Positions 21,329 through 54,755 of a stretch of 54,755 bases of DNA are shown here, one piece after another. A model generated the notes under the pieces. That model had not been told where the DNA came from and made no database searches. It saw only the letters and a list, made by a program, of their open reading frames with translations. Origin of the DNA: a virus (taxonomy: Duplodnaviria; Caudoviricetes). Numbering within the stretch: the first letter of the stretch is position 1; each line of letters starts with the position of its first letter. The translations under genes were made by a program, and so were the position numbers. The stretch covers positions 1 to 54,755 of IMG/VR virus record IMGVR_UViG_3300025276_000039; one strand, given 5' to 3'.

Positions 21329-21388
21329 GATATTTATTTATTTGAGATTATTATGGTTGTCGAAATTTGGTTGGTTGGTTTTTCTTTC

Positions 21389-22521: not shown

Positions 22522-22560
22522 CACTTGTTATAACATCCTTTCCCCTTAACTCTTCTAGAT

Positions 22561-22789: not shown

Positions 22790-22959
22790 TAGGCTGTTCT
22801 TCCGGCAGCGGCCTTAGCGGCCATCCCTGCTTTTCCGAATTTCTTTGCGCCTATTGAGTAAGCAATCTTCTGTGCAGACTCTTTAGACTTTCCTTTTTTC
22901 ATAAGTTGAGCAACTAATTTCTTGAATGCTCCACCTTTATCGAATTTATTTTTCATCAT
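22789..22959 (-). CDS. Small Lys/Ala-rich basic protein, 56 aa (not in track)
   Basis: MMKNKFDKGGAFKKLVAQL...IGAKKFGKAGMAAKAAAGRTA. Confidence 0.75.
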   Translation of the reverse strand: MMKNKFDKGGAFKKLVAQLMKKGKSKESAQKIAYSIGAKKFGKAGMAAKAAAGRTA

Positions 22960-23590: not shown

Positions 23591-23787
23591 CCCGCATCAA
23601 CTCCTCCGCCTTTCGCCATTGCGTCGTCGAAGACAATACCATTCAATACTAATAACTCTCTTCCGTCTCTACTTTTCAACATCTTAGAAAAAGCAGGAAC
23701 GTCTTTAGCGATAGGAGCGAATACCTCTGTGCCAGAAGAAAGATTTTTGTTCTCTGCAAAAGGAACTTGCTTACGATACTTTGCCAT
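23587..23787 (-). CDS. Hypothetical protein
   Basis: TAATG-coupled to the amidase gene. Confidence 0.6.
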   Translation of the reverse strand: MAKYRKQVPFAENKNLSSGTEVFAPIAKDVPAFSKMLKSRDGRELLVLNGIVFDDAMAKGGGVDAG

Positions 23788-24455
23788 TATAACAATTTTA
23801 ACATTTCTATTATCTCTGGTTGAGGGAATATGTCTGACTTATCCTTTCGTACAGAGTTGTGTGTAAAGATACCACTTTCTCCCCTTAGTGCTTTCTTTGA
23901 AACTCCCCACATATCTCTAGCATTGTACTCTGTATTAATACCATAATGCTCTTTCCAATACTTTAACAAGTTCTCTGTACTTCTTATCTGCTCGTCAGAG
24001 TACCTATGATAATACCGGTGCCCTTTGAATGGTTCTTCTAATGTACACACCTCTTCCTTTGGAACCTCTTTGTTTACGTAGTTATAAAAACGACCCTTCT
24101 TTTCTTCTAAGTGTCCCCACGCGCAAAGTTCTATACCTATGGAACGCTTATCTAAAGGAACATAATCAAGATTGTACGAATCAAACACCTCACGTTTAAT
24201 CCCCAAGTGATATGCCCAGTACTTACTAGAGAATGCCTGGACAATTTTACCATCACCTTCTGCTGCCCCAGTATTAGATATGCAGACGCATGTGGCTATA
24301 CGACCCCTGGTGTCATTGTTCCAATAGTTAACCGTGTTTTTACCACTAGCATTCCCGGCTGTGTGGTGTAAATAGATCTGATTCTTTTTATGTTTCTCCT
24401 TAACATACTCGTTAGAGGATAACTTAACCTGTAATATATCATCAAGAAAACTCAT
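23787..24455 (-). CDS. Endolysin, N-acetylmuramoyl-L-alanine amidase (Amidase_2)
   Basis: IYLHHTAG, WAYH.G, SIGIELC, H....DKSD zinc-binding pattern. Confidence 0.9.
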   Translation of the reverse strand: MSFLDDILQVKLSSNEYVKEKHKKNQIYLHHTAGNASGKNTVNYWNNDTRGRIATCVCISNTGAAEGDGKIVQAFSSKYWAYHLGIKREVFDSYNLDYVPLDKRSIGIELCAWGHLEEKKGRFYNYVNKEVPKEEVCTLEEPFKGHRYYHRYSDEQIRSTENLLKYWKEHYGINTEYNARDMWGVSKKALRGESGIFTHNSVRKDKSDIFPQPEIIEMLKLL

Positions 24456-33985: not shown

Positions 33986-36900
33986 ATGTCAAACCCAGGA
34001 CCTATCGACATTATTATAACTGAAAAGCCTGCACCTGTAGTAACCATAACTGAAAAGCCTGGAGATGTAGTAACCATTACTCAGCCAAAGCCTATATCTA
34101 TTGATATTAATAATGGAGCCGTAGAGCAACTTGTTGGATCAAAAGGTCAAAAAGGTGCTCAAGGAGAGAAGGGTACGAAAGGTGAGGTAGGTCCTAAAGG
34201 GGCGGAAGGTACTAAAGGTTTACAAGGGGTCAAAGGAGAAAAGGGTGAGAAAGGTCTTGATGGAGATGGAGACAAGGGAGCGAAAGGACAAGACGGTCAA
34301 AAAGGTGAACAGGGTGCTTCAGTAAAAGGACAGAAAGGTGAAGAGGGTTCTGATGGAGACGATGGTGCTAAAGGACAAAAAGGTCAAGAGGGTGCTTCAG
34401 TAAAAGGACAAAAAGGTCAGCAAGGTGATTCTGTCAAAGGACAAAAAGGACAAGATGGCGCTTCAGTAAAAGGTCAGAAAGGTGAGGCCGGTACTGATGG
34501 AAGCGATGGAGGCAAAGGACAAAAAGGACAAGATGGTCAAAAAGGTGAGGCCGGTACCGATGGAGACGATGGAGCCAAGGGTCAGAAAGGACAACAGGGT
34601 CTATTGCCTGCTGCAACATATGAGTATGTATTTAGCACTGATGTATCAGGAAACCCTGGTACTGGTAAGGCTAGGTTCAATAATGCGACTCAGAATACAT
34701 CTACCTCTGTTGTTATAAACTCTACTGACAAAAATGGAGACACTATCCCTACCCCAAGCGCTGGGTCGGTATTGGTAAGATCTGTAGCCACATCTACAGA
34801 CTTTGTAAACTTTAACATTAATAGTGTTGCAATTGATACAGGAATAATAACCTGTACTGTTAATGTACAAGGCAGTAGCGCAAATAGTCCATTTAGTAAT
34901 GGAGAAGAAATAACTTTATCTTTTGCCGAAGGTGGAGCCAAAGGTGAAGTCGGACAGAAAGGACAAGACGGTCAGAAGGGCGAGAAAGGTCAAGACGGTG
35001 CTTCAGTAAAAGGACAAGATGGTCAGAAAGGTGAGCAAGGTGCTTCAGTTAAAGGACAAAAAGGAGTGGCTGGTGCTGATGGAGGCGATGGAGGCAAAGG
35101 ACAAAAAGGACAAGATGGTCAGAAGGGTCAAGATGGCGCTTCAGTCAAAGGACAAAAAGGAGTGGCTGGTGCTGATGGAGGCGACGGAGGCAAAGGACAA
35201 AAAGGACAAGATGGTCAGAAGGGTCAAGATGGTGCTTCAGTTAAAGGACAAAAAGGAGAGGCTGGTGCTGATGGAGGTGATGGAGGCAAAGGACAAAAAG
35301 GACTAGATGGTCAGAAGGGTCAAGATGGCGCTTCAGTCAAAGGACAAGATGGTCAGAAGGGTCAAGATGGTGCTTCAGTCAAAGGACAAAAAGGAGAGAA
35401 AGGTGAAAAGGGAACCAGGGGTCAGAACTCTGCGAACAGTTATCCCTATAACTTTAGAACAGATACTTCTGGGAACCCAGCCGATGGGGACCTAAGAGGA
35501 AACGAAACAAATCAGAACGCATCTACCAGAATTGTTCTCAATCAAACGGATGGTGATGGTTTAACTATCCCTGCGGTGGGTGCTAATCAGGCAGGAACTA
35601 TAACCATAAGAGGTGTAGAAACCCAAACAAACTTCTTGACGTTCGACTTTAGTGGAGGCGATACTGCCTCTGGAGAAGTAGAACTTACTGGATCTATTAG
35701 TGCTTCAAGTGCCACCAGTCCTTTTACTGACAATACATCAGTCACTGTTTCTTTTGTGTTTGATGGAGCCAAAGGAGAGAAAGGTCAGAAAGGACAAGAC
35801 GGTCAAAAGGGAATAGATGGCACTTCTGTTAAGGGTCAGAAAGGTGCAGAAGGAACTTCTGTTAAAGGACAGAAAGGCCAAAAAGGAACAACAGGAGCAC
35901 AAGCACCTAATGTATTCCCTTATACTTTCAAAACAGACACATCAGGAAATCCTGGTGCTGGAGAACTTCGGGGTAACCAATCCACACAGAACACATCAAC
36001 ACGGATTGTCTTAAATCAAACCGATGGAGATAATGTAACTATCCCTGCCGTTACTGGATCGCAAGCAGGTACTGTTGTCATTTCAGGAACAGCGGAAAAT
36101 TCTGGGAACTTTTTACAGTTTTTATTTACTGAAGGTTCTACTACTGGTGGAGAGATAGAACTCTCAGGAACAATGTCTTCCTCTAGTGCTGCTAGTCCGT
36201 TTAGTAATGACGACACTGTCAATGTTGCGTTTCAGTTTGACGGAACAGATGGCGCTAAAGGTGAAAAAGGTCAAGACGGTGCTTCAGTAAAAGGACAGAA
36301 AGGTGCAGCAGGAGCAGATGGGACCTCTGTTAAAGGACAAAAGGGAGTGGCCGGTACTAATGGTGACGATGGCGCTAAGGGTATTAAGGGTCAAGACGGT
36401 GCTTCAGTTAAAGGACAAAAAGGTCAAGATGGTGCTTCAGTTAAAGGACAGAAAGGACAAGATGGCGCTAAGGGTATTAAGGGAGAGAGGGGTGAGAAAG
36501 GAATTGCAGGAACAAACGCTGCCAATATATACCCTTATACTTTTAAAACAGATACCTCAGGAGACATGGGTTCTGGTGAACTTCGAGGTAATCAGTCCAC
36601 ACAAAACACTTCTACGAGAATCAAGTTGAATTCCACAGATGGAAACAATACGACTATCCCCACTCCGACGGCTCCAGGTTCTGTAACCTTACGAGAAGTA
36701 GAGACAGAAAGTAACTTCTTAATCTTTGCATTTAGTACAGTAACTGTAGATGCTGATCAGATAGAATTAGAAGGTAGCATAAGCGCCTCAAGCGCGTCTA
36801 ATCCTTTTGATGGTGAAGATAGTATTACTGCCTCATTTGTTTTTGATGGATCGGACGGTGCAAAAGGTCAAAAAGGACAGGCGGGAGCAGACGGGGCTTC

Positions 36901-38782
36901 AGTCAAAGGTCAGAAAGGACAAGATGGCGCTTCTGTAAAAGGTCAGAAGGGTCAAGATGGTGCTTCAGTCAAAGGACAAAAAGGTCAAGCAGGAGCAGCG
37001 GGAACAGCAGCCACTGTTGACGTTGGAACCACCGAAACACTTGCCGCTGGGGAGCCAGCGACCGTTAATAATAGCGGATCTACAGAGAGCGCTACATTTG
37101 ATTTTGGAATACCTCAAGGTATTACTGGCGCTAAAGGACAAGATGGCGCTTCGGTTAAAGGACAGAAGGGTCAAGATGGTGCTTCAGTTAAAGGACAGAA
37201 AGGACAAGACGGTCAGAAGGGTGAGCAAGGTGAGGAAGGCCCTTCGGTTAAAGGACAGAAGGGTCAAGATGGCGCTTCAGTTAAAGGACAGAAAGGTGCA
37301 GCAGGCACCAATGGAGACGATGGTGCTAAAGGACAGAAAGGAGCAGAGTCATCTGCCTCTGTTACAGGTTCAGGATCCGCAACAAGGGTTGCCTTCTGGT
37401 CAGGGACTCAAGCCCTAAGTAGCAATTCAAATCTTTATTGGGATAATACTAATGACATATTAGGTTTAGGAGGAACAGGTACATTTACATCTTCACATTC
37501 TTTAAATATAGATGGAACTGGTTTAGCAATAAAAAATAATGTAAATGGCTCAAATAATAATTGGAGTACAATTACCAACATCGATACAGGGAATAGTTCA
37601 AACCTAGTATTTACTTCAGGACAAGGAGTTGCTTTAACATTAAATAATAATAAAAACGCAGAGTTCTCAGGAGATGTAAGAGTCGTTGATAGGTTATTAA
37701 TAAATGCTGCGGCATCAACAGGAAGCCCTTATCTTTCTCTTGATCAAGATGGAGTAGAGAAAGCCTATATACAATATGTTGATGCAGGAGATAATCTTGT
37801 TATGCAATCGGACGGTGTAATGAATTTTAGAACTGGCGCTACATCAAGACTAAGTATTAGTAATGCTGGTGACTCAACTTTTACAGGACAAATAACTGCT
37901 TCAAAAAATCAAAATGCTACAAGTAGTTTTAGTTTTCAAAATTTAGATACAACAGGCACAGGTGTAAGAACACATTTAAACGCTATTGCAGGAAATAGGT
38001 CAATAAGATTAGAGGCTATCCATAACGACCACAGTTATTTAGTAAGTGGTAATTCAACAATGTATCTTCAAACTAGTGGTGGTAGCAATAACACTGTATT
38101 ATTACAAGACAAAAACGCAACGTTTGCAGGAGATTTAATTTTACCTGCTCAAACTATACAATTTGGAAGTAATAGTAATCACATTTTATCATTTGAAAGT
38201 TTAGATAGTACTACAACTGCAATGGAGTTACAGATGGTATCTGTACAAGGAAATGCCATAGGAAAAATTTATGCAGAGGGTACTGTAGGGGATGGAAACA
38301 ATCTTCTGGCTTTTCGAAACGGAAATGGAAATAACTTTATGGCTTCTACTCAAGGGGGTTCTACTGTATTTTCTACAAGTAATACAGAAAGAATCAGAAT
38401 TACTAGCGCAGGCCCGGTGGGAATTAACAATACGTCTCCTGGTACAGTAAATGGTACTGCTTTTGGAGGTGTTATGCTTCATATTACAGGTTCTGGAAAT
38501 ATAGGAAGATTAGTATTAGAAGGTGCTGTTCAAGGAACTATGTTGATGAACGCAACTGGTTCAACTGCAAATCAAAGACTCAAGTTTATCCAAAGCAAAC
38601 AAAACGAGTTTAGGATGGGTAAGGTTTCGGACAGCGGAACAGAAACAACTCAATTTTCGATAGACGATAGTGGTGACTGTGAAATAGAGACTAACGGTGG
38701 CGCTTTAATATTAAGAGACAGTAGTGGAACTCGATATGCAGTTACAGTAGACGGAGGTACATTAGAAGTAAATCAATTATAA
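33986..38782 (+). CDS. Collagen-like fibre protein (Gly-X-Lys rich) with four interspersed globular repeats
   Basis: Blocks of GQKGQDGASVKGQKG; four Y.F.TD.SG...G..R.N...QN.ST domains; beta-rich C-terminal tip. Confidence 0.9.
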   Translation: MSNPGPIDIIITEKPAPVVTITEKPGDVVTITQPKPISIDINNGAVEQLVGSKGQKGAQGEKGTKGEVGPKGAEGTKGLQGVKGEKGEKGLDGDGDKGAKGQDGQKGEQGASVKGQKGEEGSDGDDGAKGQKGQEGASVKGQKGQQGDSVKGQKGQDGASVKGQKGEAGTDGSDGGKGQKGQDGQKGEAGTDGDDGAKGQKGQQGLLPAATYEYVFSTDVSGNPGTGKARFNNATQNTSTSVVINSTDKNGDTIPTPSAGSVLVRSVATSTDFVNFNINSVAIDTGIITCTVNVQGSSANSPFSNGEEITLSFAEGGAKGEVGQKGQDGQKGEKGQDGASVKGQDGQKGEQGASVKGQKGVAGADGGDGGKGQKGQDGQKGQDGASVKGQKGVAGADGGDGGKGQKGQDGQKGQDGASVKGQKGEAGADGGDGGKGQKGLDGQKGQDGASVKGQDGQKGQDGASVKGQKGEKGEKGTRGQNSANSYPYNFRTDTSGNPADGDLRGNETNQNASTRIVLNQTDGDGLTIPAVGANQAGTITIRGVETQTNFLTFDFSGGDTASGEVELTGSISASSATSPFTDNTSVTVSFVFDGAKGEKGQKGQDGQKGIDGTSVKGQKGAEGTSVKGQKGQKGTTGAQAPNVFPYTFKTDTSGNPGAGELRGNQSTQNTSTRIVLNQTDGDNVTIPAVTGSQAGTVVISGTAENSGNFLQFLFTEGSTTGGEIELSGTMSSSSAASPFSNDDTVNVAFQFDGTDGAKGEKGQDGASVKGQKGAAGADGTSVKGQKGVAGTNGDDGAKGIKGQDGASVKGQKGQDGASVKGQKGQDGAKGIKGERGEKGIAGTNAANIYPYTFKTDTSGDMGSGELRGNQSTQNTSTRIKLNSTDGNNTTIPTPTAPGSVTLREVETESNFLIFAFSTVTVDADQIELEGSISASSASNPFDGEDSITASFVFDGSDGAKGQKGQAGADGASVKGQKGQDGASVKGQKGQDGASVKGQKGQAGAAGTAATVDVGTTETLAAGEPATVNNSGSTESATFDFGIPQGITGAKGQDGASVKGQKGQDGASVKGQKGQDGQKGEQGEEGPSVKGQKGQDGASVKGQKGAAGTNGDDGAKGQKGAESSASVTGSGSATRVAFWSGTQALSSNSNLYWDNTNDILGLGGTGTFTSSHSLNIDGTGLAIKNNVNGSNNNWSTITNIDTGNSSNLVFTSGQGVALTLNNNKNAEFSGDVRVVDRLLINAAASTGSPYLSLDQDGVEKAYIQYVDAGDNLVMQSDGVMNFRTGATSRLSISNAGDSTFTGQITASKNQNATSSFSFQNLDTTGTGVRTHLNAIAGNRSIRLEAIHNDHSYLVSGNSTMYLQTSGGSNNTVLLQDKNATFAGDLILPAQTIQFGSNSNHILSFESLDSTTTAMELQMVSVQGNAIGKIYAEGTVGDGNNLLAFRNGNGNNFMASTQGGSTVFSTSNTERIRITSAGPVGINNTSPGTVNGTAFGGVMLHITGSGNIGRLVLEGAVQGTMLMNATGSTANQRLKFIQSKQNEFRMGKVSDSGTETTQFSIDDSGDCEIETNGGALILRDSSGTRYAVTVDGGTLEVNQL

Positions 38783-43442: not shown

Positions 43443-44309
43443 ATGGGTCAAGGTTATAATAGCAGAGACGACGAGTCTATGGGAGAAAGAGATTACCTCC
43501 GAGGGATTAAGAAAAAATTTCTTCAAAGTCTTACAGACAGAAGAAACGAGAGTCGTGGAGAAAACAAACAAATGGGACAACGACCTAATGATTTTGTTAG
43601 AGCACAATCAGGTGGTAAGTTGAGTGAGATGTATGGCTCAGGCGGGGCAATGAAGTATCGCAAAGGAGGAGCCAACTTAGCAATGAGTAACAGCGAGGCT
43701 GTGAGAAGCGGACGTGCTGGAAGAGGTGCAGGAGAACAAGCATATGGTATGGGCGGAAAGATGGACTACGAAAAAGGTGGTATGTTGAAGGCTCTACTAG
43801 ATGATCCAAAGCAAAGAGATATGGCACGAGCCATCCTAAGCGACACCAATACCAAGGCTGTAACAGATGGAAAGGCTGGTCGCTATGAGGAGGGCGGAAA
43901 TATGCCTGACGAAAAACGATACATTCAAAAAAGTATGCCAAGGTCTACTGAAGATTTTCCGGATGAAATTTATAATGCGTCTATGCCTATACTAAGAGAT
44001 ATGCTTAGGGGATCAAAACTTAAACCCCAAGATGAGCAGATGATTGCAGAGTTCGTTATCGGAACAGAGGGTATTGGTTCTGTTAATCCTCAACTAAGAG
44101 ATATGGCACAAAGTGCTAAACAAGGAGGGATGGATTACCTAAGATCAGACGAAGGTGGTAACTTTATTATGGACAAGTACTTTGACCAAGAAACTGGAGA
44201 AGAGGTAACAGAAGAAGTTTTAATGCAGATGAAAGAAAGAGGAAAATCTTTTAGACCACTCAGCAATACGATGGAGGGTGAAGGTAGATATGTTTTTGAA
44301 ATAAGATAA
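43443..44309 (+). CDS. Met/Gly-rich protein with repeated YxxGGx motifs
   Basis: YGSGGAM, YRKGGAN, YGMGGKM, YEKGGML, YEEGGNM. Confidence 0.75.
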   Translation: MGQGYNSRDDESMGERDYLRGIKKKFLQSLTDRRNESRGENKQMGQRPNDFVRAQSGGKLSEMYGSGGAMKYRKGGANLAMSNSEAVRSGRAGRGAGEQAYGMGGKMDYEKGGMLKALLDDPKQRDMARAILSDTNTKAVTDGKAGRYEEGGNMPDEKRYIQKSMPRSTEDFPDEIYNASMPILRDMLRGSKLKPQDEQMIAEFVIGTEGIGSVNPQLRDMAQSAKQGGMDYLRSDEGGNFIMDKYFDQETGEEVTEEVLMQMKERGKSFRPLSNTMEGEGRYVFEIR

Positions 44310-44330: not shown

Positions 44331-44360
44331 AAAAAAAGGGGGCTTATGGCCCCCTCTTTT
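44331..44360. terminator. Bidirectional intrinsic terminator
   Basis: A7-GGGGGC-ttatg-GCCCCC-TCTTTT between converging genes. Confidence 0.85.
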
Positions 44361-44379: not shown

Positions 44380-44784
44380 TTATTGTAACACTCCGCTGAC
44401 AACTTTACGTGTAGGTCTGTTTAACCTAACACCTGTTCCTCCTGAAGCAAAAAACTCAGGAGTGTCTGTGCCTTCTGTATTTTCCCAGTAGTTAACATAG
44501 TGATCATCCTCAAAGTAGAAGGTGTAGCAATTACTAACACCAACAAATAAATCGGCATTTTTTACATACGACTCCGCTTGATTCATTAAGATGCCCAACA
44601 GTTCTTTTGATTTATACTTAGACGTAATGTCAAAGTGTCGGCTGCCATTATTACCTAAAGGATATAGTGTGTGTTGTATACCACATTCGATTAAGGGCCA
44701 CATGGACTCTCTTACTTGTGGTTGATCTTGTGCTTGTGCTCCCAACGAGAGAGCAACGGCTAACGATAAAAATAGATGTTTCAT
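44380..44784 (-). CDS. Secreted/periplasmic protein, counter-oriented moron
   Basis: Sec signal MKHLFLSLAVALSLGAQA followed by Q; has its own promoter and terminator. Confidence 0.75.
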   Translation of the reverse strand: MKHLFLSLAVALSLGAQAQDQPQVRESMWPLIECGIQHTLYPLGNNGSRHFDITSKYKSKELLGILMNQAESYVKNADLFVGVSNCYTFYFEDDHYVNYWENTEGTDTPEFFASGGTGVRLNRPTRKVVSGVLQ

Positions 44785-44811
44785 TTTATTAAAGATTTGG
44801 TTTCACTCCTC

Positions 44812-44839
44812 CAAACCTAAGAATAATATTTTAGATTTG
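44812..44839. promoter_or_regulatory. Divergent -7 elements
   Basis: TAGGTTTG on - (44812..44819); TAGATTTG on + (44832..44839). Confidence 0.7.
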
Positions 44840-44866
44840 CAAGAACAACTATAAAATTTAATTGAG

Positions 44867-46000
44867 ATGAGTACAGAAGGCAACATGGAACAAGCAGTTA
44901 AAGATGCTGGTTTCGAAATAATGAGTGGTCCACCTGAAGGGATGGGCAGAGCACTGGAGGCTCCTGCTCCACAAGCAGCAGAAGTTTCTCCAAATAATAC
45001 ACCAGCCGAACCCGCTCCACAAACAGCGGCACCGGTTGAGCAAGCAACGCAGGAACCCGCGCCTGTACAAGAGCAAGTGGCACAACAACCACAACCTCAG
45101 GTAGAAAGCGGAAGTTCTATGACAAACGAACAATCTGTTTCGAAGTTAGATTTTTTAGACAGCCTTGGTTCTCCCGAAATGGGATCGCCCGCTGTACAAG
45201 AGTCTAGCCAAGTAGCAGAGGAAGCGTCAAATCTAGATCCTCGAATCCAAGTAATTGCTGATTTTGTAGAGAAGACAGGAAGAAACCCAGAAGATTGGTT
45301 TCGCTATCAGTCCTTAGAGCCGTCCGAAATGGATGACCGTACTGTAATGCGAGTCCACCTTGCAAGTGAATATCCTTCTTTAGGTAACGATGAAGTTGAT
45401 ACATTAATCAACTCCAAGTACAAAGTAGATGATGCATTATATAGTGAAGAGGAGACAAAGGTTTCAAAATTGCAACTGAAGATTGACGCACAAAAAGCCA
45501 GACAGTCTATTGACACACTCCGTAGTGAGTATGTTAGCCCGGCTGTTGAAGCGAATAATGATGGAAGTGAAGATGGTGGTAATCCATTTGATACGCCATG
45601 GATACAAGATAGCGGACGCTCGCTTGCAGGATTAGATAAAATATCTTTTGACCTGCCTAGTGGAAAAGAGTTTCACTATGGTGTATCTGAGACATATCGA
45701 AATGATTTAAACAAGTCTAACACTAACATGAATGAGTACTTTGAGAAGTACGTAGATGACGGTGGCTCTTGGGATCACGACCTCTGGAATATGCACAGGA
45801 CTGTTACAGACAACCTGCCTAGTATTATAGAGAATGTGTATCGACAAGGGATGAGCGATGGTCAAAGGGGGATAGTCGAAAAGGCTGCCAACATTGACGC
45901 GAGCGGACCAGCGGCACCGGTACAACCTCGGAACAACTCAGTTGCTAACCAGGTGCTTGATGCACTAGGAAGGCGACAACCATTTTTAAAGAATATATAA
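44867..46000 (+). CDS. Putative capsid scaffolding protein
   Basis: Disordered Pro/Gln/Glu-rich N-terminus, acidic helices; directly before the MCP gene. Confidence 0.7.
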   Translation: MSTEGNMEQAVKDAGFEIMSGPPEGMGRALEAPAPQAAEVSPNNTPAEPAPQTAAPVEQATQEPAPVQEQVAQQPQPQVESGSSMTNEQSVSKLDFLDSLGSPEMGSPAVQESSQVAEEASNLDPRIQVIADFVEKTGRNPEDWFRYQSLEPSEMDDRTVMRVHLASEYPSLGNDEVDTLINSKYKVDDALYSEEETKVSKLQLKIDAQKARQSIDTLRSEYVSPAVEANNDGSEDGGNPFDTPWIQDSGRSLAGLDKISFDLPSGKEFHYGVSETYRNDLNKSNTNMNEYFEKYVDDGGSWDHDLWNMHRTVTDNLPSIIENVYRQGMSDGQRGIVEKAANIDASGPAAPVQPRNNSVANQVLDALGRRQPFLKNI

Positions 46001-46018
46001 ATTTCAAAATAAACTATA

Positions 46019-47404
46019 ATGGCAAATACATTTCCTCCAGTTTTTAATGACAACAAGCCTGCTGTCTTTAGACAATTGGATCCAGCGAAATACTCTTCTT
46101 TAGGAGATTTCATTAACGAGATTAACGCTCCTGATAACAGGGATCAGTTAGTCAAAACTTATGGTTACCAGCAAATCTCTGGTGGCTTAACAGGATTTTT
46201 ATCCTTAACCGGTGCTATCAGAGCATCTGGAACGGCTGACGAAGTTCAGTACTGGGAAGAGACTAGATTGCATTCAACTGCAAAAGTTACTCCAACAGCC
46301 ACTGCTGCCGTCGCTGCAACAAGTGTTATCGCTACTAAAGCAACAACTGACGCTTCAGTTCTTCGTTTAAATGACGTAGTACTTATAGAGGGCCAGGATC
46401 GTTTTATCGTTGCTGCTATTTCCCCAACAGGAGAGATTGGCTTAACAGCGACTGCGACTTATACATTTGAATCATTAGCAACTACAGGACTTACTGGTTC
46501 AGGAAGTACTGCAACTGTTGAGATTCCTGTTATTGGTAACTTGTTCGGACAAGGAACTGATCAAAACAAAGGTTACTTAGAGAGTAACGTAATCAAGCGT
46601 ACTAACCCTTATAACATTATAAAGGAAGTATTCAAGGTTACAGGTTCTCAAGCAACTAACATTGGTTGGATCAACGTAGGTAACGGAGACTACAGATGGT
46701 ATGTTAAAGGAGAGATGGACACTCGTGCTCGTTTCTTAGACAAGCGTGAAATGATGATGCTTCTCGGTGAGAAGATTGGAAACGCTGCTAACTTAAATGC
46801 AAATGTTTCTACTATCACAGGTGGTGAGGGTTACTTCTCTGCTATCGAAAACAGAGGTATTGTTCATGACGGACAGATCGACGGATTCGACGAGTTAGAT
46901 GTTCTTATCGCAGAACTTGACAAGCAAGGCGCTGCTCCTGAGTACGCTATGTATGTTAATACTACACAAGGTCTAGCAATTGATGACATGGTAGCAACTA
47001 TGAATGGTGCTGCTGGATTCGGAGACGGAACTAATGGCATTAGTGCTTTTGGTGGTCGTGGTGCTGAGTTAGGATTCCAATCGTTTATTCGTGGAGGGTA
47101 TACTTTCCACAAGCATTCTTGGAAACTTCTTAACGATCCTACTTTGTTAGGTGCTGCGGATGCTAAGTACAGAGGTGCTATGATTCCTTTGACTACGGTT
47201 GTAGATCCAAAGACTGGCGATCGTGCTGCTGCTTTGGAACTTAACTACAAGGATACAAACGGATATAGCCGTGAGATGGAGCACTGGATGACTGGTTCTA
47301 TTTTAGGTGTCAATAATACAAATACTGACGACCTTCAATTTAACTATCGTTCTGAGTGTACTCTAGTTACTCGTGCTGCTAACCAGCATATCTTAATTAA
47401 GTAA
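46019..47404 (+). CDS. Major capsid protein
   Basis: 461 aa; YWEE.RL, N..NIIKE.F.V.GS, LGF.SF.RGGY.F.K; strongly biased codon use. Confidence 0.85.
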   Translation: MANTFPPVFNDNKPAVFRQLDPAKYSSLGDFINEINAPDNRDQLVKTYGYQQISGGLTGFLSLTGAIRASGTADEVQYWEETRLHSTAKVTPTATAAVAATSVIATKATTDASVLRLNDVVLIEGQDRFIVAAISPTGEIGLTATATYTFESLATTGLTGSGSTATVEIPVIGNLFGQGTDQNKGYLESNVIKRTNPYNIIKEVFKVTGSQATNIGWINVGNGDYRWYVKGEMDTRARFLDKREMMMLLGEKIGNAANLNANVSTITGGEGYFSAIENRGIVHDGQIDGFDELDVLIAELDKQGAAPEYAMYVNTTQGLAIDDMVATMNGAAGFGDGTNGISAFGGRGAELGFQSFIRGGYTFHKHSWKLLNDPTLLGAADAKYRGAMIPLTTVVDPKTGDRAAALELNYKDTNGYSREMEHWMTGSILGVNNTNTDDLQFNYRSECTLVTRAANQHILIK

Positions 47405-47427
47405 TCACTTATTGATTCTTAGGGAAC

Positions 47428-47448
47428 GGAGGGGGTTCTGCCCCCTCC
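47428..47448 (+). terminator. Strong hairpin after MCP (no U tract: stabiliser or weak terminator)
   Basis: GGAGGGGG-ttctg-CCCCCTCC. Confidence 0.6.
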
Positions 47449-47483
47449 TCACTCCCAAATAAACTTATTAATTATATTCAATT

Positions 47484-48305
47484 ATGTCACAAGAAAAAAC
47501 AAAAAGCGCACCTGCTGCGCCAAGAACAATAAAGGCCCCAGCGCCTCAGACCTCAAAAGGTCGATACTCCCCAATTAAAAAAGAAAGAACAAGAGATGAA
47601 ACAGTGGTCTTTGAGATCGTTAAAGGTGGAGGCATTATCTGTAAAATAAAATCCGAAATCCCTGTATACGATAAGGTCACAAAAAAAGTAAGACAGATTC
47701 GTTATTGTCCAGGAGAAACTAGTATTTTTAAGGATGAGCAAAGCACATCATCTGTTCGCTCTCATGTAGTATTTAGGGATGGTTTATTAAGCGTCCCAGA
47801 AGAAAAGGCTAACCTCAGAGAGTTCCTATATGCACACTCTTCTAACATAGGTAACGGAGGAGGCTTGTTTCGCATTGTTGATAACACCAGGAATACGGAG
47901 GCAGAGGTCAATAAAGAGTTCTTAGTTCATGACGCTGTAGCGTTAGTTCGTACAAAAGAACTTGATGAGATTCTAGCGGTTGCTGTTGCCTTAAATATTA
48001 ACATAGAGCAAAAGACTCTAGAGATAAGGAGAGAACTTCTTAGAGAGGCGAAGAGTAGTCCTGACGCTTTTATCAGAATGTTTGATGATCCTAGGGTTAA
48101 GGTTCGATCTGCGATTATTCAATCAAAAGATTTTCAAATAATCAAAATGAAAAACGACGGAGCGTATTGGTTCGACAGCGGTAACTTAATTCTTTCAGTT
48201 CCTCCTGGTCAAGATCCAATTGACGTTTTAGTAATGTTTTGTCTGACAGAAAAGGGTGCGACTTTGTATGAAGAAGTACTTGCCAGACTAGAAAAAATGG
48301 CCTAA
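47484..48305 (+). CDS. Conserved-looking protein downstream of MCP
   Basis: R.IRY...ETSIF.DEQ...VF.DG.L.V pattern. Confidence 0.7.
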   Translation: MSQEKTKSAPAAPRTIKAPAPQTSKGRYSPIKKERTRDETVVFEIVKGGGIICKIKSEIPVYDKVTKKVRQIRYCPGETSIFKDEQSTSSVRSHVVFRDGLLSVPEEKANLREFLYAHSSNIGNGGGLFRIVDNTRNTEAEVNKEFLVHDAVALVRTKELDEILAVAVALNINIEQKTLEIRRELLREAKSSPDAFIRMFDDPRVKVRSAIIQSKDFQIIKMKNDGAYWFDSGNLILSVPPGQDPIDVLVMFCLTEKGATLYEEVLARLEKMA

Positions 48306-48310
48306 GTTTG
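48280..48310 (+). promoter_or_regulatory. Promoter TTG-N20-TAAGTTTG for a candidate sRNA
   Basis: Both Bacteroidota elements at consensus spacing, with no ORF before the next terminator. Confidence 0.65.
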
Positions 48311-48314
48311 TAGG

Positions 48315-48398
48315 ACTACATGTAAATTTAGTGGACGTATAAGGATTTGGTTTTCCACGTTCCTACCAGAGGGGGTCTCGCAAGAACCCCCTTTGTTA
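48315..48398 (+). ncRNA. Candidate trans-acting antisense sRNA
   Basis: Stem GUGGA/UCCAC presents AUAAGGAUUUGGUUU; complementary to start regions at 19165, 19190, 20181 and 44791. Confidence 0.55.
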
Positions 48399-48400
48399 TT
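48370..48400 (+). terminator. Intrinsic terminator
   Basis: AGGGGGT-c-TC-GCAA-GA-ACCCCCT followed by TTGTTATTTT. Confidence 0.8.
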
Positions 48401-48404
48401 TTCG

Positions 48405-48412
48405 TATATTTG
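48405..48412 (+). promoter_or_regulatory. -7 element TATATTTG
   Basis: Restarts transcription for the tail operon just after the terminator. Confidence 0.7.
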
Positions 48413-48431
48413 CTAAAACGCCTAACAGATT

Positions 48432-49184
48432 ATGGCAAGTGTACAAAGAGTTTTCGACGCAGTAAAGAATATAGCAAACAAAGATCAGCGAGGTTTCGTC
48501 ACCCCTGCAATATTTAACCAGTTCGCTGGTGTCGCACAGATGAACGTGTTCAATCGTTTGTTTGGAGAGATTAGTATGGGTAATAGATTACGCAGATCTA
48601 ATATAGATGGGCCTAGAATATTTTCTAGATCAAAGACAGTCCTAGAGGACCTATCTGTTTTTTCTAAAAAAGTCACACTAAACCTGACCGCAGGCGCTGT
48701 GACTAAACCTTTAGATCTTGCTAGGGTTATTTCCATAAACACAATAGGTAAAAAAATACTAGGGGTAGAAGAGCAGGAACAAGTTCAATTGGTTTACAAT
48801 GAAGACCACATTGATAGAATACTCAACAGCGATCTTTCCGCTCCTTCAAACTCTGCCCCTGTAGCATTAATCGCTACAAGCATAGAGGTTTTTCCTAATG
48901 TAAACACCAGCATTAATAAGATAATTTTACGGTACTATAAGTTACCTGAAGGACTAGTTCCAACGACTCAAGCACAAACACCTTCGTCACCAAAGTTTGG
49001 TTATACAACGGTTGTAGCAGGGGTAGAGTTATATGACGCTTCAACAAGTGTAGACTTTGAATTACCAGAGCAATATTTTGCTGAGTTGGTTGAAGAGGTT
49101 CTAGTATTAGTAGGAGTTAATCTTAGAGATAAAGATGTTTACTCGTATGCAAGCAATGAAGTAACTAAAGAAAATAATTCTTAA
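48432..49184 (+). CDS. Tail ring/head-tail adaptor protein
   Basis: NKDQRG..TP..FN..A..AQ and DFELP pattern; position. Confidence 0.65.
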   Translation: MASVQRVFDAVKNIANKDQRGFVTPAIFNQFAGVAQMNVFNRLFGEISMGNRLRRSNIDGPRIFSRSKTVLEDLSVFSKKVTLNLTAGAVTKPLDLARVISINTIGKKILGVEEQEQVQLVYNEDHIDRILNSDLSAPSNSAPVALIATSIEVFPNVNTSINKIILRYYKLPEGLVPTTQAQTPSSPKFGYTTVVAGVELYDASTSVDFELPEQYFAELVEEVLVLVGVNLRDKDVYSYASNEVTKENNS

Positions 49185-49927
49185 TGAGTCAGAATTACAT
49201 AGCCCTGGATTACGTTGTCAATGATTACATAATGAGCATTGATGATGATGACTATGGAGCAACACCTGCCGATTACATGGTACGCCAGTATGCGTTACGT
49301 GGTATTCGAGAGTTCGGGTTTGACATAAGTCATAATATCAAGACAGAAATATTAGATGTAAACGAAAACCTGGGAACGGTAGAACTTCCCTGTGATTATG
49401 TTGACATGGTAAAACTGGGACAGTTAGGAGCAGATGGCTTAGTCTATGTGTTTGCCAATAACCCAAACATGAACCTATTAAATAACCAGCCGGCAGAAAC
49501 AATGCCGAATTATCTTTTAGGATTTGACTCTTATGTTTTCCAGAACTTCATGTATGAGTCTACTCAGGGTAGATTATATGGAATGGGGGGAGGACAAGGT
49601 GCCGGGGAGTACAGAATAAATCTTAATGAAAATCGTATAGAGATATCTGCTATTTCATCAACAACCAAGGTGGTCTTAGAGTATATATCAGATGAGGCTA
49701 AATCACAAAACCCTTGTGTGCCAGTAATGGCAGAGCAGGCATTGAGAGCCTATATATATTTAAAGATTATAGAGAGAAAATCTAGCGTACCATTAGGAGA
49801 GAAACAACGCGCACGTGCAGAATATTTCAACGAAAGAAGATTAGCGAATTCACGCATGAAGTCATTCAATAAGTTTGATGCACTTAGTGTGAGCAGGCAA
49901 AACTTTGTTCTTAGTCCTAAATCTTAA
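49184..49927 (+). CDS. Tail ring/tubular protein
   Basis: LP.DYV...KL and VVLEYISD pattern; precedes the nozzle gene. Confidence 0.65.
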   Translation: MSQNYIALDYVVNDYIMSIDDDDYGATPADYMVRQYALRGIREFGFDISHNIKTEILDVNENLGTVELPCDYVDMVKLGQLGADGLVYVFANNPNMNLLNNQPAETMPNYLLGFDSYVFQNFMYESTQGRLYGMGGGQGAGEYRINLNENRIEISAISSTTKVVLEYISDEAKSQNPCVPVMAEQALRAYIYLKIIERKSSVPLGEKQRARAEYFNERRLANSRMKSFNKFDALSVSRQNFVLSPKS

Positions 49928-49929: not shown

Positions 49930-52900
49930 ATGCCAAGAATAAATAAGTTACTACCTAGGTATCTCAACACAGACGACGACGAGCGCCTAATCAAAAGGAC
50001 AGAGATGACGGACGCTCAAAACGTAAGGGTTGCTGTTGATGTGGAGAAAGATTCTTTAGTACTTAAAAACGCCTGGGGAAATACTCTGAGATCAGGTACT
50101 ATTCAAAATGGATCGTCTCTCACAGGTACCAGTGTAACTATTGGTGTTGTTGCTGACGATAACACTAGTCAAATATATTACTTCGTTTATAATTCAAATC
50201 TAGATCATACTATATTTAGATACGATCAAAACTCAAAACAAACATTCATAGTATTTCGAAACTCAATTCTTCAATTCTCCGAGGATGGGTTTATAGATGC
50301 GGATCTAATAAGGTTAGCGAATAACGATATACTTATTTACTTTAACGACGGACGCAGTGCCCCTAAAAAAATCAACGCTACTCTTTGTGAGGAAAGTGTT
50401 AGTGGGGTTGGTGGTTATCCTACAAAATTTACCACAGGAACCGTCCAAGAAAGACTTCAATATATAACAGCGGCCAAAGCACCACCTTTGTCACCGCCTA
50501 CTCTTGAGTTTAAAAACAATCCATCGTTTCCACAGAATGATATTTTCACTAAGAACTTTCAGTTCGCTTATCAGTATGAATATTTTGATGGGGAACAGAG
50601 TGCGTTAAGTCCTTACTCTGAATTGTCTGTTGCGCCAAATCAACTTAAGGATGGATTCAATAATCAGGGACAACAAAACTTTTTCAATCAAATAAATATT
50701 GGGGTTCTTAATAGCGTTGCTGATGTAAGCCGTCTTAAGATTTATGGTAGAGTTGGAGACAGAGATGCGGCTTTCTTTTTAATAGATACTATAGATAATA
50801 TTAACGGTACCACAAAAAGCATTATTCGGTTTAGAAATGACACTAACTATATTGGTCTTAGTGCTACTGTCCAGGACAAAGTGTTTGACAATGTTCCCCA
50901 AGTTGCTGACTCTCAGGCTATAGCCAACGGAAGGCTGTACTATGGAGGATATACGGAAGGGTATAACCCTACGTCTACAAACATTAGTCTGCTACCTAAC
51001 TATAACGCTAGGCCATCCACTGATGACATAACGATACAGGCTTATGCTGGTACAGACAACGAATTTACAATAGACACGACGGCTCTAACCCTTCCCATAG
51101 CAGAAGCAAGTACATTGTTTTTATCCTTTACATGGAATGACGGTGCTGTAATAATAAAAAATACTTTAGGAAATAATAATGACTATAATTTTTTAGCAGT
51201 AGAGGGTGCTAATTTTATATCGTTAAGAAACGATGTAAATAATTCTCTTGCTACAACATTTCCAGAGGAAATAAAAGCCCTTGCAGGTTTAAGAACCGAC
51301 AGATTTCTTGGGGGTACAGAAATAAATGCCCCTAATGGTGTTTTAAATAGCCCTCCTAATCTAAGATTTGTCGTGCAAAAGGGAACCTCAGATACAAAAG
51401 AAAAAGATATTGGCGTTAGAAAGATAAAGAAAGGGATTCGCGTTATAAGTTCAGGGGTTCAGTTCAGAGAAACAATTGAACTTGCAGCCGGAGACGATAG
51501 AGTTACTATTGTACAAAAGATAAGGAACGCTATAGCAAAGAATCGTCCTATAAGTTTTGACCCTCAGTCTGGCGAGGCCGGCTTTAGTGTTTTGCGAACT
51601 GGAGGTCAAACAAGTTCTAATCAAGAGAACGCATCCTTTAAAGGTCAAGGAGTTGCTTTCCCTATGCAACAAAATCAAACCGAATCAGATACTACAGGTA
51701 TACTAAGGTTTAGAATAAAACTAGAGAAAGTAACATTCAGTATAAACAAACTTACTTTTGGGGATCAAGAAACTGAACTAATAGAGCCAAAGGGTATTGC
51801 CTCAACATTCGATATAATTGAAGGGTCAATGAACAATGCGGGTCAAACTAATGCATTAATTTTTGGTAACCCTCCACAATTTACTCCAACAATTGGAGGG
51901 CAATTTATTAAAATGACACAACAATTTGCTAACCTAAGAGGAGGTAATGTTGTAAGAAATGGTTCTTATGTATCTACCGGTGGTTGTTTTGTGGTTGCCA
52001 ATGATCAAATGTTTGGCGATAGATGTTTTAAATCTGGTTCAACCCATCAATTTGGTATTCTTCATTTTGATGACAGAGGGAGAGCGGGAAGTGTTGAGCC
52101 TATAAGTAATGAAGTATTTGTTGATCACACAAACAATAGGGCCAGCGAAGATGATAACGATGGCTTTGCTAACGTTGTGGCAAGACTAATCAATCCTGCA
52201 CCTTACTGGGCATCTACATATTCAATTGTGTACGCTGGTCAAGGAAGTATCATTAACAAAGTGCAGTACACAATAGGGGGCGCATACGTTGCAACAAACG
52301 ACAATAGCAACGAAGGTTCATTCGGTGCCACAAAGTCCATCTACCTGTCGCTAAACACCCTTCAGAGCAAAGCAAACTCCTATGACAATCAAATGGGAGC
52401 ACAGATTAATTACGGATACGCCTCAGGGGACATTTTAAGGATTGTTCAATACGGTAGTAGTCCGGTCGAAAAATCTACAAAAGAGTGGAGGGTGTCTAAA
52501 GTGGTTAGTCTTTTAGCGGACCCTTTAACTAATCCTCTTTTAGATCAGAGTAGTAAGGCGGCTATAGAAAATACTACAGGAGATTTTCTGGTTATAGAAG
52601 ACAACGGCACATTGGGTTTTAATTATAACAGTATATCTAAGAACAGTAGCAACTGGGATAAGGAATGCTTGATAGAAGTTTATCGCCCATCAAAAGCATT
52701 TGAGGATTTATTTTATTATGAGATAGGGGTTAACGGTACGGTCGACTCTAGTCAATCGTATAGTACTCAAAGGTCTTCAACCACCACAAGTATAAAACTT
52801 ATTTCTCCACCATCCGTAGGAGATGGTAAGTCGTTTCAGTTCTTTTCCTCAGAGCAACTATATAAGGGAGACGTGATAGCGAATGGTGGTAACGAAATAA

Positions 52901-54755
52901 CAGTAGGTAACGTATCAGAAGACACCTCTGAAACAGGGTTTTTGTACGAATGTTATGGGGTCTCAAATTTTAACTGGGCAACAGATACGGCTATTAGTAT
53001 GACGGTTACAAATCCCGACGCTGTTCTTAGTTTTAGCCAGGGAGATTCTTACTTTAGATTAAGAACACTGTTCACAGGTTCGGCACCAACAGCGGGAGAT
53101 ACCTGGAAGAATATTGCCACTGCATTTTCTCAAAATTCTATTGTAGAGTTCATAGAGGATCCGAGGGTTAGTGACTTCTTCCCTTCTAACTTTACATCGT
53201 TAGGTCGTCGATTCGCTTACCTTCCTAATGAAAGAAGGATCAAAAGATTTGGCTCCTTAACCTGGTCTGATACGTTTGATATAGACAGTCTCACGCTGGG
53301 TCTATCTTCTTTTAATATTACTCAGATAAATTATGTGAACCTATCCTATGATTATGGTTCAATAAAGGCGTTGGTTTCTTATAATCAAATCATGTATGTT
53401 ATTCATGAGAGAAGAGCCGGTATTGTTCCAGTGGATAGGAATCTATTAACCGCTCCAGCAGGAGATACGTTAACAGCGACTAATAAAGTCGTAGGTCCAG
53501 TTAAATATTATGCCGCAGAATATGGGTGCAACGACAACGCAGAGTCTGTAGCGACATATAGGGGTAGTGTATTCTTCGTTGACGCAAAGGCAGGAAAGGT
53601 TTGTAAAATAAATTTTGATACAGGAATCCAGGTTGTAAGTGAACAACTTATGGACTCATTCTTTAAGTCTAAAATGTTTTCCTCCTCTGCTAGTGCAATG
53701 AATCGTAAGTATATCGGAGGAATGGACAGAGAGAATAATGAGTACATCATTAGTTCCCCTGCATTAAGTACCTCAACAATAACCATTGTAGACAATTTAA
53801 CATCTGAGTTGTCGGCTACCACCGTAACAGGATTAGGAAGGACAAACGCAGGGGGTACTACAATAGAAGTAACCCCTGTCTATAATAATGAACTCACGTT
53901 TGATTGGAGTTCAGATCCTAGAGATTTCTCAGTAAGTCAGGACAAAGCAGACAAGTCCGGAGAGGCTTTGCTGATTGTTAATCAATTAACGAATACCCCA
54001 ATTGTAGCGATCGCTGAAGATTTAGAGCCAGCACAAAATAGTAGCGCATCTCTAAACACCGCTATAGAACTTCCTTTATTAACGTCTTCATTTAGTGCAT
54101 TTACTCCTGGAGAGTTTAACCAACAGACTGGAGCGGTTTCTATATCTGCATCAAGTGCTAGTTCTTCAGGAACCATTACTAACACAGCAGAAACACTCCC
54201 AGCATTCACTGTTGCGTATGATGTTCGTAGCGATTTTTGGAGTACGAGATATTCGTATATAGCCGAACAATTAACAGGACTATCTGACAGGTTGTATACC
54301 TTTAAAGATGGACAGATCTATGAGCATGAACCAACAGCCGCTAGAAATACTTTTTATGGAGTTGCTTCCCCATCTATTGTAGAGGTAGTATCTAACTATA
54401 ACCCATCTATGGTCAAAGTATATGAGGCGGTAAGTTTAGAGGGAAATAATAAAGATTGGAGTGCGGAAATAACCAACACGGATCAAACAAGTGCTCTGGC
54501 CAATTCTATATGGCAAGAGAAAGAAGGTTTTTATTACGCACCAATCCATCAAGACTCTAATAACACGGTATCTTACACAGCAACAGCGGACATCACTAAA
54601 GTAAATGGAACATCAGAGGTCTTTTCTCTAGGCGTTGTAGACTCAACGAGTACGAATGTAATAACATTTAAAAACGCTATAAACAATATGTCCTTTCCAC
54701 TAGGAAATAGTACGGCTTTGTTTAAAGTAGACACCTCTTCAAAGGCATTAGTACC
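49930..54755 (+). CDS. Tail nozzle/stabilisation protein (~1688 aa, ends at 630 across the origin)
   Basis: MPRINKLLPRYLNTDDDERL...DAQNVRV start; frame runs off the window end in frame with the 43..630 ORF; FAYQYEY.DGE.S..SP and YG.I.A-type motifs. Confidence 0.85.
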   Translation, partial: MPRINKLLPRYLNTDDDERLIKRTEMTDAQNVRVAVDVEKDSLVLKNAWGNTLRSGTIQNGSSLTGTSVTIGVVADDNTSQIYYFVYNSNLDHTIFRYDQNSKQTFIVFRNSILQFSEDGFIDADLIRLANNDILIYFNDGRSAPKKINATLCEESVSGVGGYPTKFTTGTVQERLQYITAAKAPPLSPPTLEFKNNPSFPQNDIFTKNFQFAYQYEYFDGEQSALSPYSELSVAPNQLKDGFNNQGQQNFFNQINIGVLNSVADVSRLKIYGRVGDRDAAFFLIDTIDNINGTTKSIIRFRNDTNYIGLSATVQDKVFDNVPQVADSQAIANGRLYYGGYTEGYNPTSTNISLLPNYNARPSTDDITIQAYAGTDNEFTIDTTALTLPIAEASTLFLSFTWNDGAVIIKNTLGNNNDYNFLAVEGANFISLRNDVNNSLATTFPEEIKALAGLRTDRFLGGTEINAPNGVLNSPPNLRFVVQKGTSDTKEKDIGVRKIKKGIRVISSGVQFRETIELAAGDDRVTIVQKIRNAIAKNRPISFDPQSGEAGFSVLRTGGQTSSNQENASFKGQGVAFPMQQNQTESDTTGILRFRIKLEKVTFSINKLTFGDQETELIEPKGIASTFDIIEGSMNNAGQTNALIFGNPPQFTPTIGGQFIKMTQQFANLRGGNVVRNGSYVSTGGCFVVANDQMFGDRCFKSGSTHQFGILHFDDRGRAGSVEPISNEVFVDHTNNRASEDDNDGFANVVARLINPAPYWASTYSIVYAGQGSIINKVQYTIGGAYVATNDNSNEGSFGATKSIYLSLNTLQSKANSYDNQMGAQINYGYASGDILRIVQYGSSPVEKSTKEWRVSKVVSLLADPLTNPLLDQSSKAAIENTTGDFLVIEDNGTLGFNYNSISKNSSNWDKECLIEVYRPSKAFEDLFYYEIGVNGTVDSSQSYSTQRSSTTTSIKLISPPSVGDGKSFQFFSSEQLYKGDVIANGGNEITVGNVSEDTSETGFLYECYGVSNFNWATDTAISMTVTNPDAVLSFSQGDSYFRLRTLFTGSAPTAGDTWKNIATAFSQNSIVEFIEDPRVSDFFPSNFTSLGRRFAYLPNERRIKRFGSLTWSDTFDIDSLTLGLSSFNITQINYVNLSYDYGSIKALVSYNQIMYVIHERRAGIVPVDRNLLTAPAGDTLTATNKVVGPVKYYAAEYGCNDNAESVATYRGSVFFVDAKAGKVCKINFDTGIQVVSEQLMDSFFKSKMFSSSASAMNRKYIGGMDRENNEYIISSPALSTSTITIVDNLTSELSATTVTGLGRTNAGGTTIEVTPVYNNELTFDWSSDPRDFSVSQDKADKSGEALLIVNQLTNTPIVAIAEDLEPAQNSSASLNTAIELPLLTSSFSAFTPGEFNQQTGAVSISASSASSSGTITNTAETLPAFTVAYDVRSDFWSTRYSYIAEQLTGLSDRLYTFKDGQIYEHEPTAARNTFYGVASPSIVEVVSNYNPSMVKVYEAVSLEGNNKDWSAEITNTDQTSALANSIWQEKEGFYYAPIHQDSNNTVSYTATADITKVNGTSEVFSLGVVDSTSTNVITFKNAINNMSFPLGNSTALFKVDTSSKALV
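54367..54755. repeat. Direct terminal repeat / circular overlap, right copy
   Basis: Starts tccccatctattgtag at 54367 and ends gcattagtacc; implies a 54,366-bp unit genome. Confidence 0.97.

Follow-up and report, generated by a model that had tools for sequence, protein, structure and literature searches.

The 126-nucleotide (nt) spacer at positions 48306-48431 of IMG/VR virus record IMGVR_UViG_3300025276_000039 probably encodes a trans-acting antisense small RNA (sRNA) of about 85 nt that blocks translation initiation. The window, which is the whole stretch of DNA that was analysed, is the entire record of 54,755 base pairs (bp), with a completeness estimate of 96%. The spacer separates a gene for a 273-amino-acid (aa) protein with no assigned function (47484-48305) from a virion-protein gene (48432-49184). 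A sequence-only reading had proposed here a noncoding RNA that has its own promoter and pairs with several minus-strand initiation regions, and such an RNA is the best explanation of the comparative data.

The region had been described as a TTG-N20-TAAGTTTG promoter, a stretch free of open reading frames (ORFs), a terminator capped by a GNRA loop and a new promoter for the next gene, and all of these elements are recovered where they had been placed (Table 1). TAAGTTTG fits TAnnTTTG, the -7 consensus of the Bacteroidota primary sigma factor (PMC7366714, in the part of that study drawn on here). No ORF is found in the spacer, whose sole ATG directly precedes a TAA. The G+C-rich hairpin and U-tract of an intrinsic terminator are present in the window; a simple terminator scan missed them because the stem holds one bulge. 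The spacer folds at a predicted -37.1 kcal/mol, better than 200 of 200 shuffles (z = -3.1). The first hairpin of the fold presents the seed GGAUUUGGUUUU. That the seed lies mostly in a hairpin loop had been predicted, and the hairpin stands, but not the stem GUGGA/UCCAC that was drawn for it. This stem is broken in a relative of 92% identity (L198) and in G001, a 55.7-kilobase (kb) relative that is collinear with the window (mean nucleotide identity of 79.9% over 49,203 aligned bases). The better-supported stem is GGACGU/ACGUUC, which the L198 changes leave paired. At the gathering score, Rfam 15 yields no match in the whole window, and the best weak matches on the spacer have E-values of 0.4 and 0.84 (18.8 and 15.2 bits against cut-offs of 55 and 50).

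The seed sequence recurs elsewhere in the genome. The 16-mer ATAAGGATTTGGTTTT (48339-48354) is found again at 19165-19180 and 19188-19203 with one mismatch each, and 19190-19203 is an exact match to the seed over 14 of 14 positions. With up to three mismatches the 16-mer also matches 20177-20192 and 44789-44804; it has 7 matches in total against 1.57 expected, a number that none of 100 shuffles reaches. The 11-mer core GGATTTGGTTT gives 9 matches at no more than one mismatch (1.48 expected, 9 reached in 0 of 100 shuffles), eight of which are on the plus strand. The matches that start at 19190, 20181 and 44791 each lie at a distance of 7 nt from a minus-strand ATG, counted from its first base (19183, 20174 and 44784, respectively). 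Thus, the recurrences that had been read from the sequence, including those at 19165 and, in part, at 21365, are all real, as is the 7-nt spacing. The partial match at 21365-21372 reads ATTTGGTT; it lies about 40 nt 5' of the ATG and outside the initiation region, and is of doubtful significance.

In a genome-wide target ranking, the 21-nt seed region was compared with 65 start regions, with 500 shuffled seeds as controls. The three leaders that had been named as targets take ranks 1 to 3: the leader of gene 18602-19183 (-18.0 kcal/mol), the moron leader (-17.5 kcal/mol) and the leader of gene 19713-20174 (-16.4 kcal/mol). The next-best start region reaches -12.3 kcal/mol. A third-best energy this low occurs in 2 of the 500 shuffled seeds, and the best energy alone is reached by 8% of the shuffles, whose best averages -15.2 kcal/mol, because G/U-rich sequences pair easily with CA-rich leaders. 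Duplex folding of the full hairpin against the start regions was too noisy (9 at -18 kcal/mol or below against 5.4 in shuffles) and was replaced by counts of contiguous runs and by the 21-nt seed. The paired stretch covers an AAA at about -12 to -14; in Flavobacterium johnsoniae, initiation is promoted by adenines at -12/-13 and by a start region with little structure (PMC6847099, in the part of the paper used). Gene 18602-19183 encodes a 193-aa DUF7178 protein and is the first gene of a long replication operon. A second site in its messenger RNA (mRNA), at 19165-19180, may be incidental because synonymous changes weaken the pairing in G001.

Early genes and the moron had both been put forward as targets. 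From the comparison of relatives, the moron is the predicted conserved target, and the early-operon leaders would be extra targets in this lineage; the operons are termed early from their gene content alone. The seed and all three leader tags are kept in G001, including the 14 nt of the first target and the leader sequence of the second, and early-operon tags are seen in the window lineage only (window and G001). In another set of relatives, group A, the 11-mer of the loop was considered as a multi-copy tag and rejected, since four of five genomes hold one exact copy of it and the fifth holds two; only the window lineage therefore has the early-leader tag in multiple copies. The 5' part of the G001 spacer diverges from that of the window and has matches of its own. 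Two paralogous minus-strand genes have identities of 15 and 13 nt over their start codons, and a third gene (148 aa) has one of 11 nt just 5' of its start. In G001 (L012-L014), in the orientation analysed, these matches are at 35768-35782 and 36053-36065 (the paralogous small genes) and at 36932-36942. The 5' part of the window's own spacer has no comparable matches.

The minus-strand leaders ahead of 19183, 20174 and 21328 also have a common block, TAAnTT(A/G)TATACGTAC, which is followed by CA-rich (AACCAA)n repeats that end in AAACCAAATCC (regions 19184-19236, 20175-20235 and 21329-21410, minus strand). TATACGTAC is exact at all three promoter regions and occurs once elsewhere. These regions may represent a class of promoters specific to the phage, an enhancer of translation, or both. 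The idea that TATACGTAC links the spacer to the early promoters was rejected, with 12 matches against 8.6 expected, which is not significant.

Seed and leaders change together between lineages. Own and cross-class pairs of spacer and moron leader were compared with one representative for each of 14 lineages. In all 14, Watson-Crick pairing between the spacer RNA and the start region of its own moron runs for 9-13 nt (mean 10.2); across classes, a run of 9 nt or more is attained in 4 of 152 pairs (mean 6.0). With the sense strand as control, own pairs give at most 7 nt. The seeds and leaders form six classes that are unrelated in sequence: GGAUUUGGU with ACCAAAUCC, AAUCGGUUAA with UUAACCGAUU, UUUUGGUUAG with CUAACCAAAA, CUUGUUGUUA with UAACAACAAG, UCUGGUUGGUA with UACCAACCAGA, and a pyrimidine-rich class of 13 nt that abuts the AUG, AAUCUCUUUCUCU with AGAGAAAGAGAUU. 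The six are represented by the W type, group C, L162, L223, L231 and group A. Covariation of seed and leaders in related phages, which had been named beforehand as a check, is thus borne out by six co-varying pairs across the 14 lineages. The moron-leader sites all fall between -19 and the AUG, and all predicted sites lie within -20 to +9 of the start codon. In a whole-genome cross-test of seven genomes, start regions with runs of at least 10 nt numbered 25 over the 13 within-group cells, compared with 4 over 36 cross-group and 9 over 49 sense-control cells.

For a comparison of this spacer, loci coding for relatives of the 273-aa protein were collected, 80 each from viral and from metagenome contigs; the two sets share some contigs, so that not every locus is independent. 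Among the 159 loci with a readable spacer, 65 have a long one (terminator at least 35 nt from the stop codon), 86 a short one and 8 no terminator in the simple scan. TAnnTTTG stands exactly on the stop codon in 42 of the 65 long spacers and in 0 of the 86 short ones, and most of the other long spacers carry TAGATTTA or TATATTTG displaced by 5-6 nt. A terminator is found at the equivalent position in 151 of the 159 loci and also in Cellulophaga phage phi38:1. The -7 box of the next gene, as ..GTATATTTG.., is nearly universal after the terminator and is likewise present in phi38:1. Past the stop codon, the TTTG persists in spacers that otherwise diverge completely. As judged from these loci, promoter box, 5' single strand and hairpin are an extra module placed before an older terminator, because the box accompanies long spacers only while the terminator is nearly universal. 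Of the promoter that had been claimed, the -7 box stands, as it is kept with the hairpin module, and the -33 TTG is doubtful, as it is not conserved in relatives. A scan of viral contigs for a seed followed by the next-gene promoter returned the W lineage only; the other 15 matches were unrelated coding DNA.

A distant lineage of about 50% protein identity (L232, L237, L240, L242, L245, L252, L255, L256, L261 and L263) has TA(A/G)nnTATATTT(G/A) past the stop codon; a hairpin follows, and between it and the terminator lies a conserved single strand, UUGAUUGGUUGG. This arrangement seems to be a further variant of the small-RNA module; no target for it was found within the DNA examined.

All lineages have the same predicted RNA layout of 73-90 nt. 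Among the 6 distinct sequences of group A, both sides change in 4 of 10 stem pairs and 94.8% of the alignment cells are paired, compared with 30-57% in slid controls; the 13-nt loop is invariant, and all cells of the terminator hairpin are paired. The W lineage (3 sequences) has 97.2% of cells paired with one double and two one-sided changes, which is not significant at n = 3. Hairpins topped by the core occur in five lineages (window with L198 and G001; L200; L201; L202, with GGGUUUGGU; L207/L209). The core GGAUUUGGU is invariant in four of these, whose stems are unrelated, and the fifth (L202) has GGGTTTGGT. The mean unpaired probability of the seed is 0.58-0.71 in the four core lineages that were scored, and values of up to 0.8 are predicted for seeds. 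The seed is thus predicted to sit in an accessible, conserved region.

Translation initiation in Bacteroidota proceeds without Shine-Dalgarno pairing. In the proposed mechanism, a host-type promoter with its -7 box on the upstream stop codon would fire a short transcript that ends near 48400, at the pre-existing intrinsic terminator of the upstream gene. The seed GGAUUUGGUUUU would then pair with the tag AAACCAAAUCC, 6-8 nt 5' of the AUG, in three minus-strand mRNAs, namely those of the secreted-protein moron and of the first genes of two replication-block operons. The duplex would cover the A-rich, initiation-promoting region at -11 to -14 and keep the 30S subunit off the leader, so that translation would be repressed and mRNA decay probably accelerated. 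We infer the transcript, its ends, its timing and the repressive direction of its action from sequence comparison.

Table 1. Coordinates of the predicted sRNA gene, its candidate target sites and the moron in the window.
Feature	Position	Strand	Remarks
Possible -33 TTG	48280-48282	+	inside the end of the 273-aa gene, 20 nt 5' of the -7 box; doubtful
-7 box TAAGTTTG	48303-48310	+	overlaps the TAA stop codon (48303-48305) of gene 47484-48305
Predicted small RNA, about 85 nt	48316-48402	+	putative start about 5-8 nt past the -7 box; end in the U-tract
Hairpin 1	48329-48365	+	minimum-energy fold; main stem GGACGU (48333-48338) / ACGUUC (48357-48362); outer helix UAG/CUA, inner helix GGA/UCC; apical loop UUUGGUUU
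Seed AUAAGGAUUUGGUUUU	48339-48354	+	core GGAUUUGGU at 48343-48351
Intrinsic terminator	48367-48402	+	12-pair hairpin 48367-48395, GCAA tetraloop 48380-48383, then UUUGUUAUUUU
-7 box TATATTTG of the next gene	48405-48412	+	outside the RNA; gene ATG at 48432
Target 1, leader of gene 18602-19183	19190-19203	-	14 Watson-Crick pairs at -20 to -7
Second site in target 1 mRNA, codons 2-6	19165-19180	-	15 Watson-Crick pairs and 1 G.U
Target 2, leader of gene 19713-20174 (153 aa)	20181-20192	-	12 Watson-Crick pairs at -18 to -7
Target 3, moron leader	44790-44804	-	10 Watson-Crick pairs, 15 allowing G.U; covers the A-rich -14 to -12
Weak extra site, long leader of gene 21011-21328	21365-21374	-	8 Watson-Crick pairs and 2 G.U
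Moron	44380-44784	-	134-aa protein with signal peptide
Host-type promoter of the moron		-	TTG 44840-44842, N20, TAGGTTTG 44812-44819

Several observations weigh against this sRNA. The 14 lineages correspond to about six independent events, because lineages within a seed class are related. The complementarity is short (9-13 nt), and 9-mers are near noise in a single genome, as about one start region per genome reaches 9 nt in shuffles. The hairpin module is also present in groups B and D and in locus L139, for which no target was found within the DNA examined. Helix extension over 19 related pairs adds 26 nt for G.U-type pairs and 10 nt for the mirror A.C-type, so that the asymmetry expected of RNA pairing is only modest. 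In the predicted fold, the GGA part of the seed is paired in the weak inner helix. The -33 TTG is spaced by N20 in the window and G001 and by N23, or absent, in other lineages; a -33 motif is also undetectable in F. johnsoniae promoters (PMC7366714, in the same part of that study). The near-identity of the window and G001 spacers was dropped as a sign of selection because the similarity of the two genomes is patchy everywhere, with many 60-nt windows genome-wide equally alike. In the four marine metatranscriptome contig sets with neighbouring genes, no contig falls within 47640-48425; this gap is uninformative because contigs cannot show a small RNA.

The same seed could act without a separate sRNA, as the 3' untranslated region (UTR) of a long late mRNA, intact or processed, that does the pairing itself. 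The missing conservation of the -33 element agrees with such a 3' UTR, as does the ancestral terminator, which serves the upstream gene in all relatives, even those without the hairpin. It is nevertheless unlikely in view of the perfect TAnnTTTG on the stop codon, which separates long from short spacers, and of the TTTG that is kept past the stop amid complete divergence of the spacer, a pattern that is difficult to account for unless the box serves as a promoter. The motif could also be a DNA operator for a phage regulatory protein, placed downstream of promoters, with the complementarity as a by-product. All copies do lie 10-40 nt downstream of promoter-like boxes, and co-varying identical DNA sites would also be expected from a protein that co-evolves with its site; the latter point counts against the sRNA as well. 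Yet six unrelated sequences would demand six changes of specificity, and several proteins would be needed, as the 5' end of the spacer, the loop and the linker match different genes. The motif is not palindromic, its distance to the ATG is fixed (6-8 nt) while that to the -7 box varies (about 10, 19 and 24 nt), the spacer copy is always in the loop or single strand of a covarying hairpin, and the mismatches lean toward G.U-compatible ones. The comparative data thus favour an RNA over a DNA site because of the six unrelated sequences, the ATG-fixed sites and the loop-borne spacer copy, which makes an operator quite improbable.

Promoter, structured leader, terminator and gene are also the classic layout of a transcription attenuator, which in this case would gate read-through into the downstream virion genes, with the seed binding an antiterminating factor or RNA. 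The chance of this is slim: the downstream gene has its own near-universal -7 box, also in hairpin-less relatives and in phi38:1, no alternative antiterminator pairing was found in the fold, and the complementarity to start regions elsewhere would be left unexplained. Lastly, a G/U-rich hairpin might resemble low-complexity CA-rich leaders by chance, given that the leaders are repetitive, (AACCAA)n, and that shuffled G/U-rich seeds pair fairly well. Such a coincidence is already very unlikely, the most remote of the readings considered here, in view of the motif counts that no shuffle reaches, the rarity of so low a third-best energy and the pairing that every one of the 14 lineages shows with its own leader, compared with 4 of 152 cross-class pairs, and that extends to seeds that are not G/U-rich.

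The moron, the conserved target predicted for the sRNA, has no Pfam or PHROG match, and its protein-atlas scores (at most 0.81) are at chance level. A slot 3.47-3.59 kb upstream of the spacer holds a minus-strand signal-peptide gene in 39 of the 124 loci that include it, and in group A a homologous gene sits elsewhere in the genome. The slot looks like a swappable cassette, in which promoter, leader and signal peptide are conserved and the mature proteins are unrelated (window, L137, L138, L146, L200, L201, L207 and L297). The first 19 residues of the moron do not differ between L138 and L146 (100% identity), and G002 and G003 share 87% identity over 32 residues. A two-way terminator hairpin at 44332-44360 lies between the plus-strand gene 43443-44309 and the 3' end of the moron. 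Contigs of four marine metatranscriptome runs from one study match 44470-44782, 45071-47631 and 48426-49300 at 90-100% identity; these regions include the moron, a 377-aa gene and capsid-region genes. The phage or a close relative is present in these RNA libraries, with DNA carry-over possible.

The plus strand of the phage encodes terminase (28999-31095), portal (31134-33572) and tail-fibre protein (33986-38782) together with virion proteins, and the minus-strand block 10701-24455 encodes a primase-helicase, a PDDEXK nuclease, DUF7178 and an amidase. No named phage is close, as every protein match to Flavobacterium, Cellulophaga and Maribacter phages is below 60% identity, and no match to a named phage was found at the DNA level. 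Around the spacer, phi38:1 (Pervagoviridae) and Maribacter phage Panino share the gene order of the window. The phage belongs to a widespread uncultured group of marine and freshwater podovirus-like phages that is distantly related to phi38:1. A 3'-open ORF of 1608 aa at the end of the window (49930-54753) runs on in a 5'-open ORF at its start (1-630), which marks the record as a nearly whole, circularly permuted genome; after rotation, it and G001 are collinear. The similarity between the two is patchy, with many 60-nt stretches 93-100% identical, which suggests mosaic exchange between them. The tail-fibre gene has many internal repeats within 34100-37450; G001 has dozens of cross-matches to them at 50.6-55 kb, and collagen-like and tail-fibre families match them as well.

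To our knowledge, phage regulatory RNAs are known almost only from phages of Proteobacteria. The c4 RNA of P1/P7 and the CI RNA of P4 are antisense RNAs with several target sites that set immunity specificity. As predicted for the element described here, short exposed sequences of a phage RNA pair with more than one site in phage mRNA and block expression; in both cases, the RNA sequence and the target sequence also vary together from one related phage to the next. The c4 RNA is processed from a precursor and has targets in the same operon of a temperate phage, and CI of P4 causes premature termination. The present element, in contrast, has a promoter box of its own and predicted targets in other transcription units on the opposite strand, and no tyrosine integrase (PF00589) was found in the record. 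DapZ and MicL are chromosomal, Hfq-dependent 3'-UTR sRNAs of enterobacteria with an internal promoter. They are alike in that the promoter is at the end of the upstream coding sequence and the terminator is shared with the mRNA, and they differ in that the box of the phage element overlaps the stop codon itself and its host phylum lacks an evident Hfq.

GibS of Bacteroides thetaiotaomicron represses via pairing at start regions, in a genus with no evident homologue of Hfq or ProQ (PMC7366714, in its part on this RNA). It shares with the phage element the TAnnTTTG-type promoter, a phylum without evident Hfq/ProQ and the pairing at start codons, which is predicted in the phage element. GibS is chromosomal and largely unstructured, exposes an extended single-stranded seed and regulates host metabolism, according to the same part of that source, whereas the phage element presents its seed on a hairpin, is predicted to target the phage's own mRNAs and has no sequence or Rfam relation to GibS. 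A 2025 review of phage sRNAs covers, in the sections drawn on, sar, sas, OOP, aQ, STnc6030, PAK_P4as15, VpdS, PreS and DicF (PMC12197685). All of them act by base-pairing, several at initiation regions (ant, sieB, tailspike and endolysin genes), but in these sections most of those that act on phage genes overlap or are antisense to their target, and VpdS, PreS and DicF, which act in trans, are Hfq-dependent or act on host genes, with all hosts among the Proteobacteria (PMC12197685). No word beginning with Bacteroid or Flavobacter occurs in the text of this review, and a full-text literature search found no regulatory RNA in Bacteroidota phages.

The six classes might further be the specificity groups of an RNA-based system for kin discrimination or superinfection, a reading that is doubtful at present. 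If it were true, the RNA of a resident phage would act on a same-class phage that enters the cell, silencing its tagged moron and, in this lineage, the genes that head its early operons as well. Diversifying selection would then change seed and tag together to escape cross-regulation, and the swappable secreted-protein moron cassette would add to this. The sRNA itself, if true, would be the first regulatory-RNA family in Bacteroidota phages, by a mechanism that is classical. Its six matched seed/leader pairs would be a natural set for the study of an antisense block of initiation that works without Shine-Dalgarno pairing or, apparently, Hfq. It would also illustrate a simple route to a new sRNA gene, in which a promoter box arises on a stop codon and the terminator of the upstream gene is reused. 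For the phages that carry it, the candidate points to post-transcriptional control of a polymorphic secreted-protein cassette.

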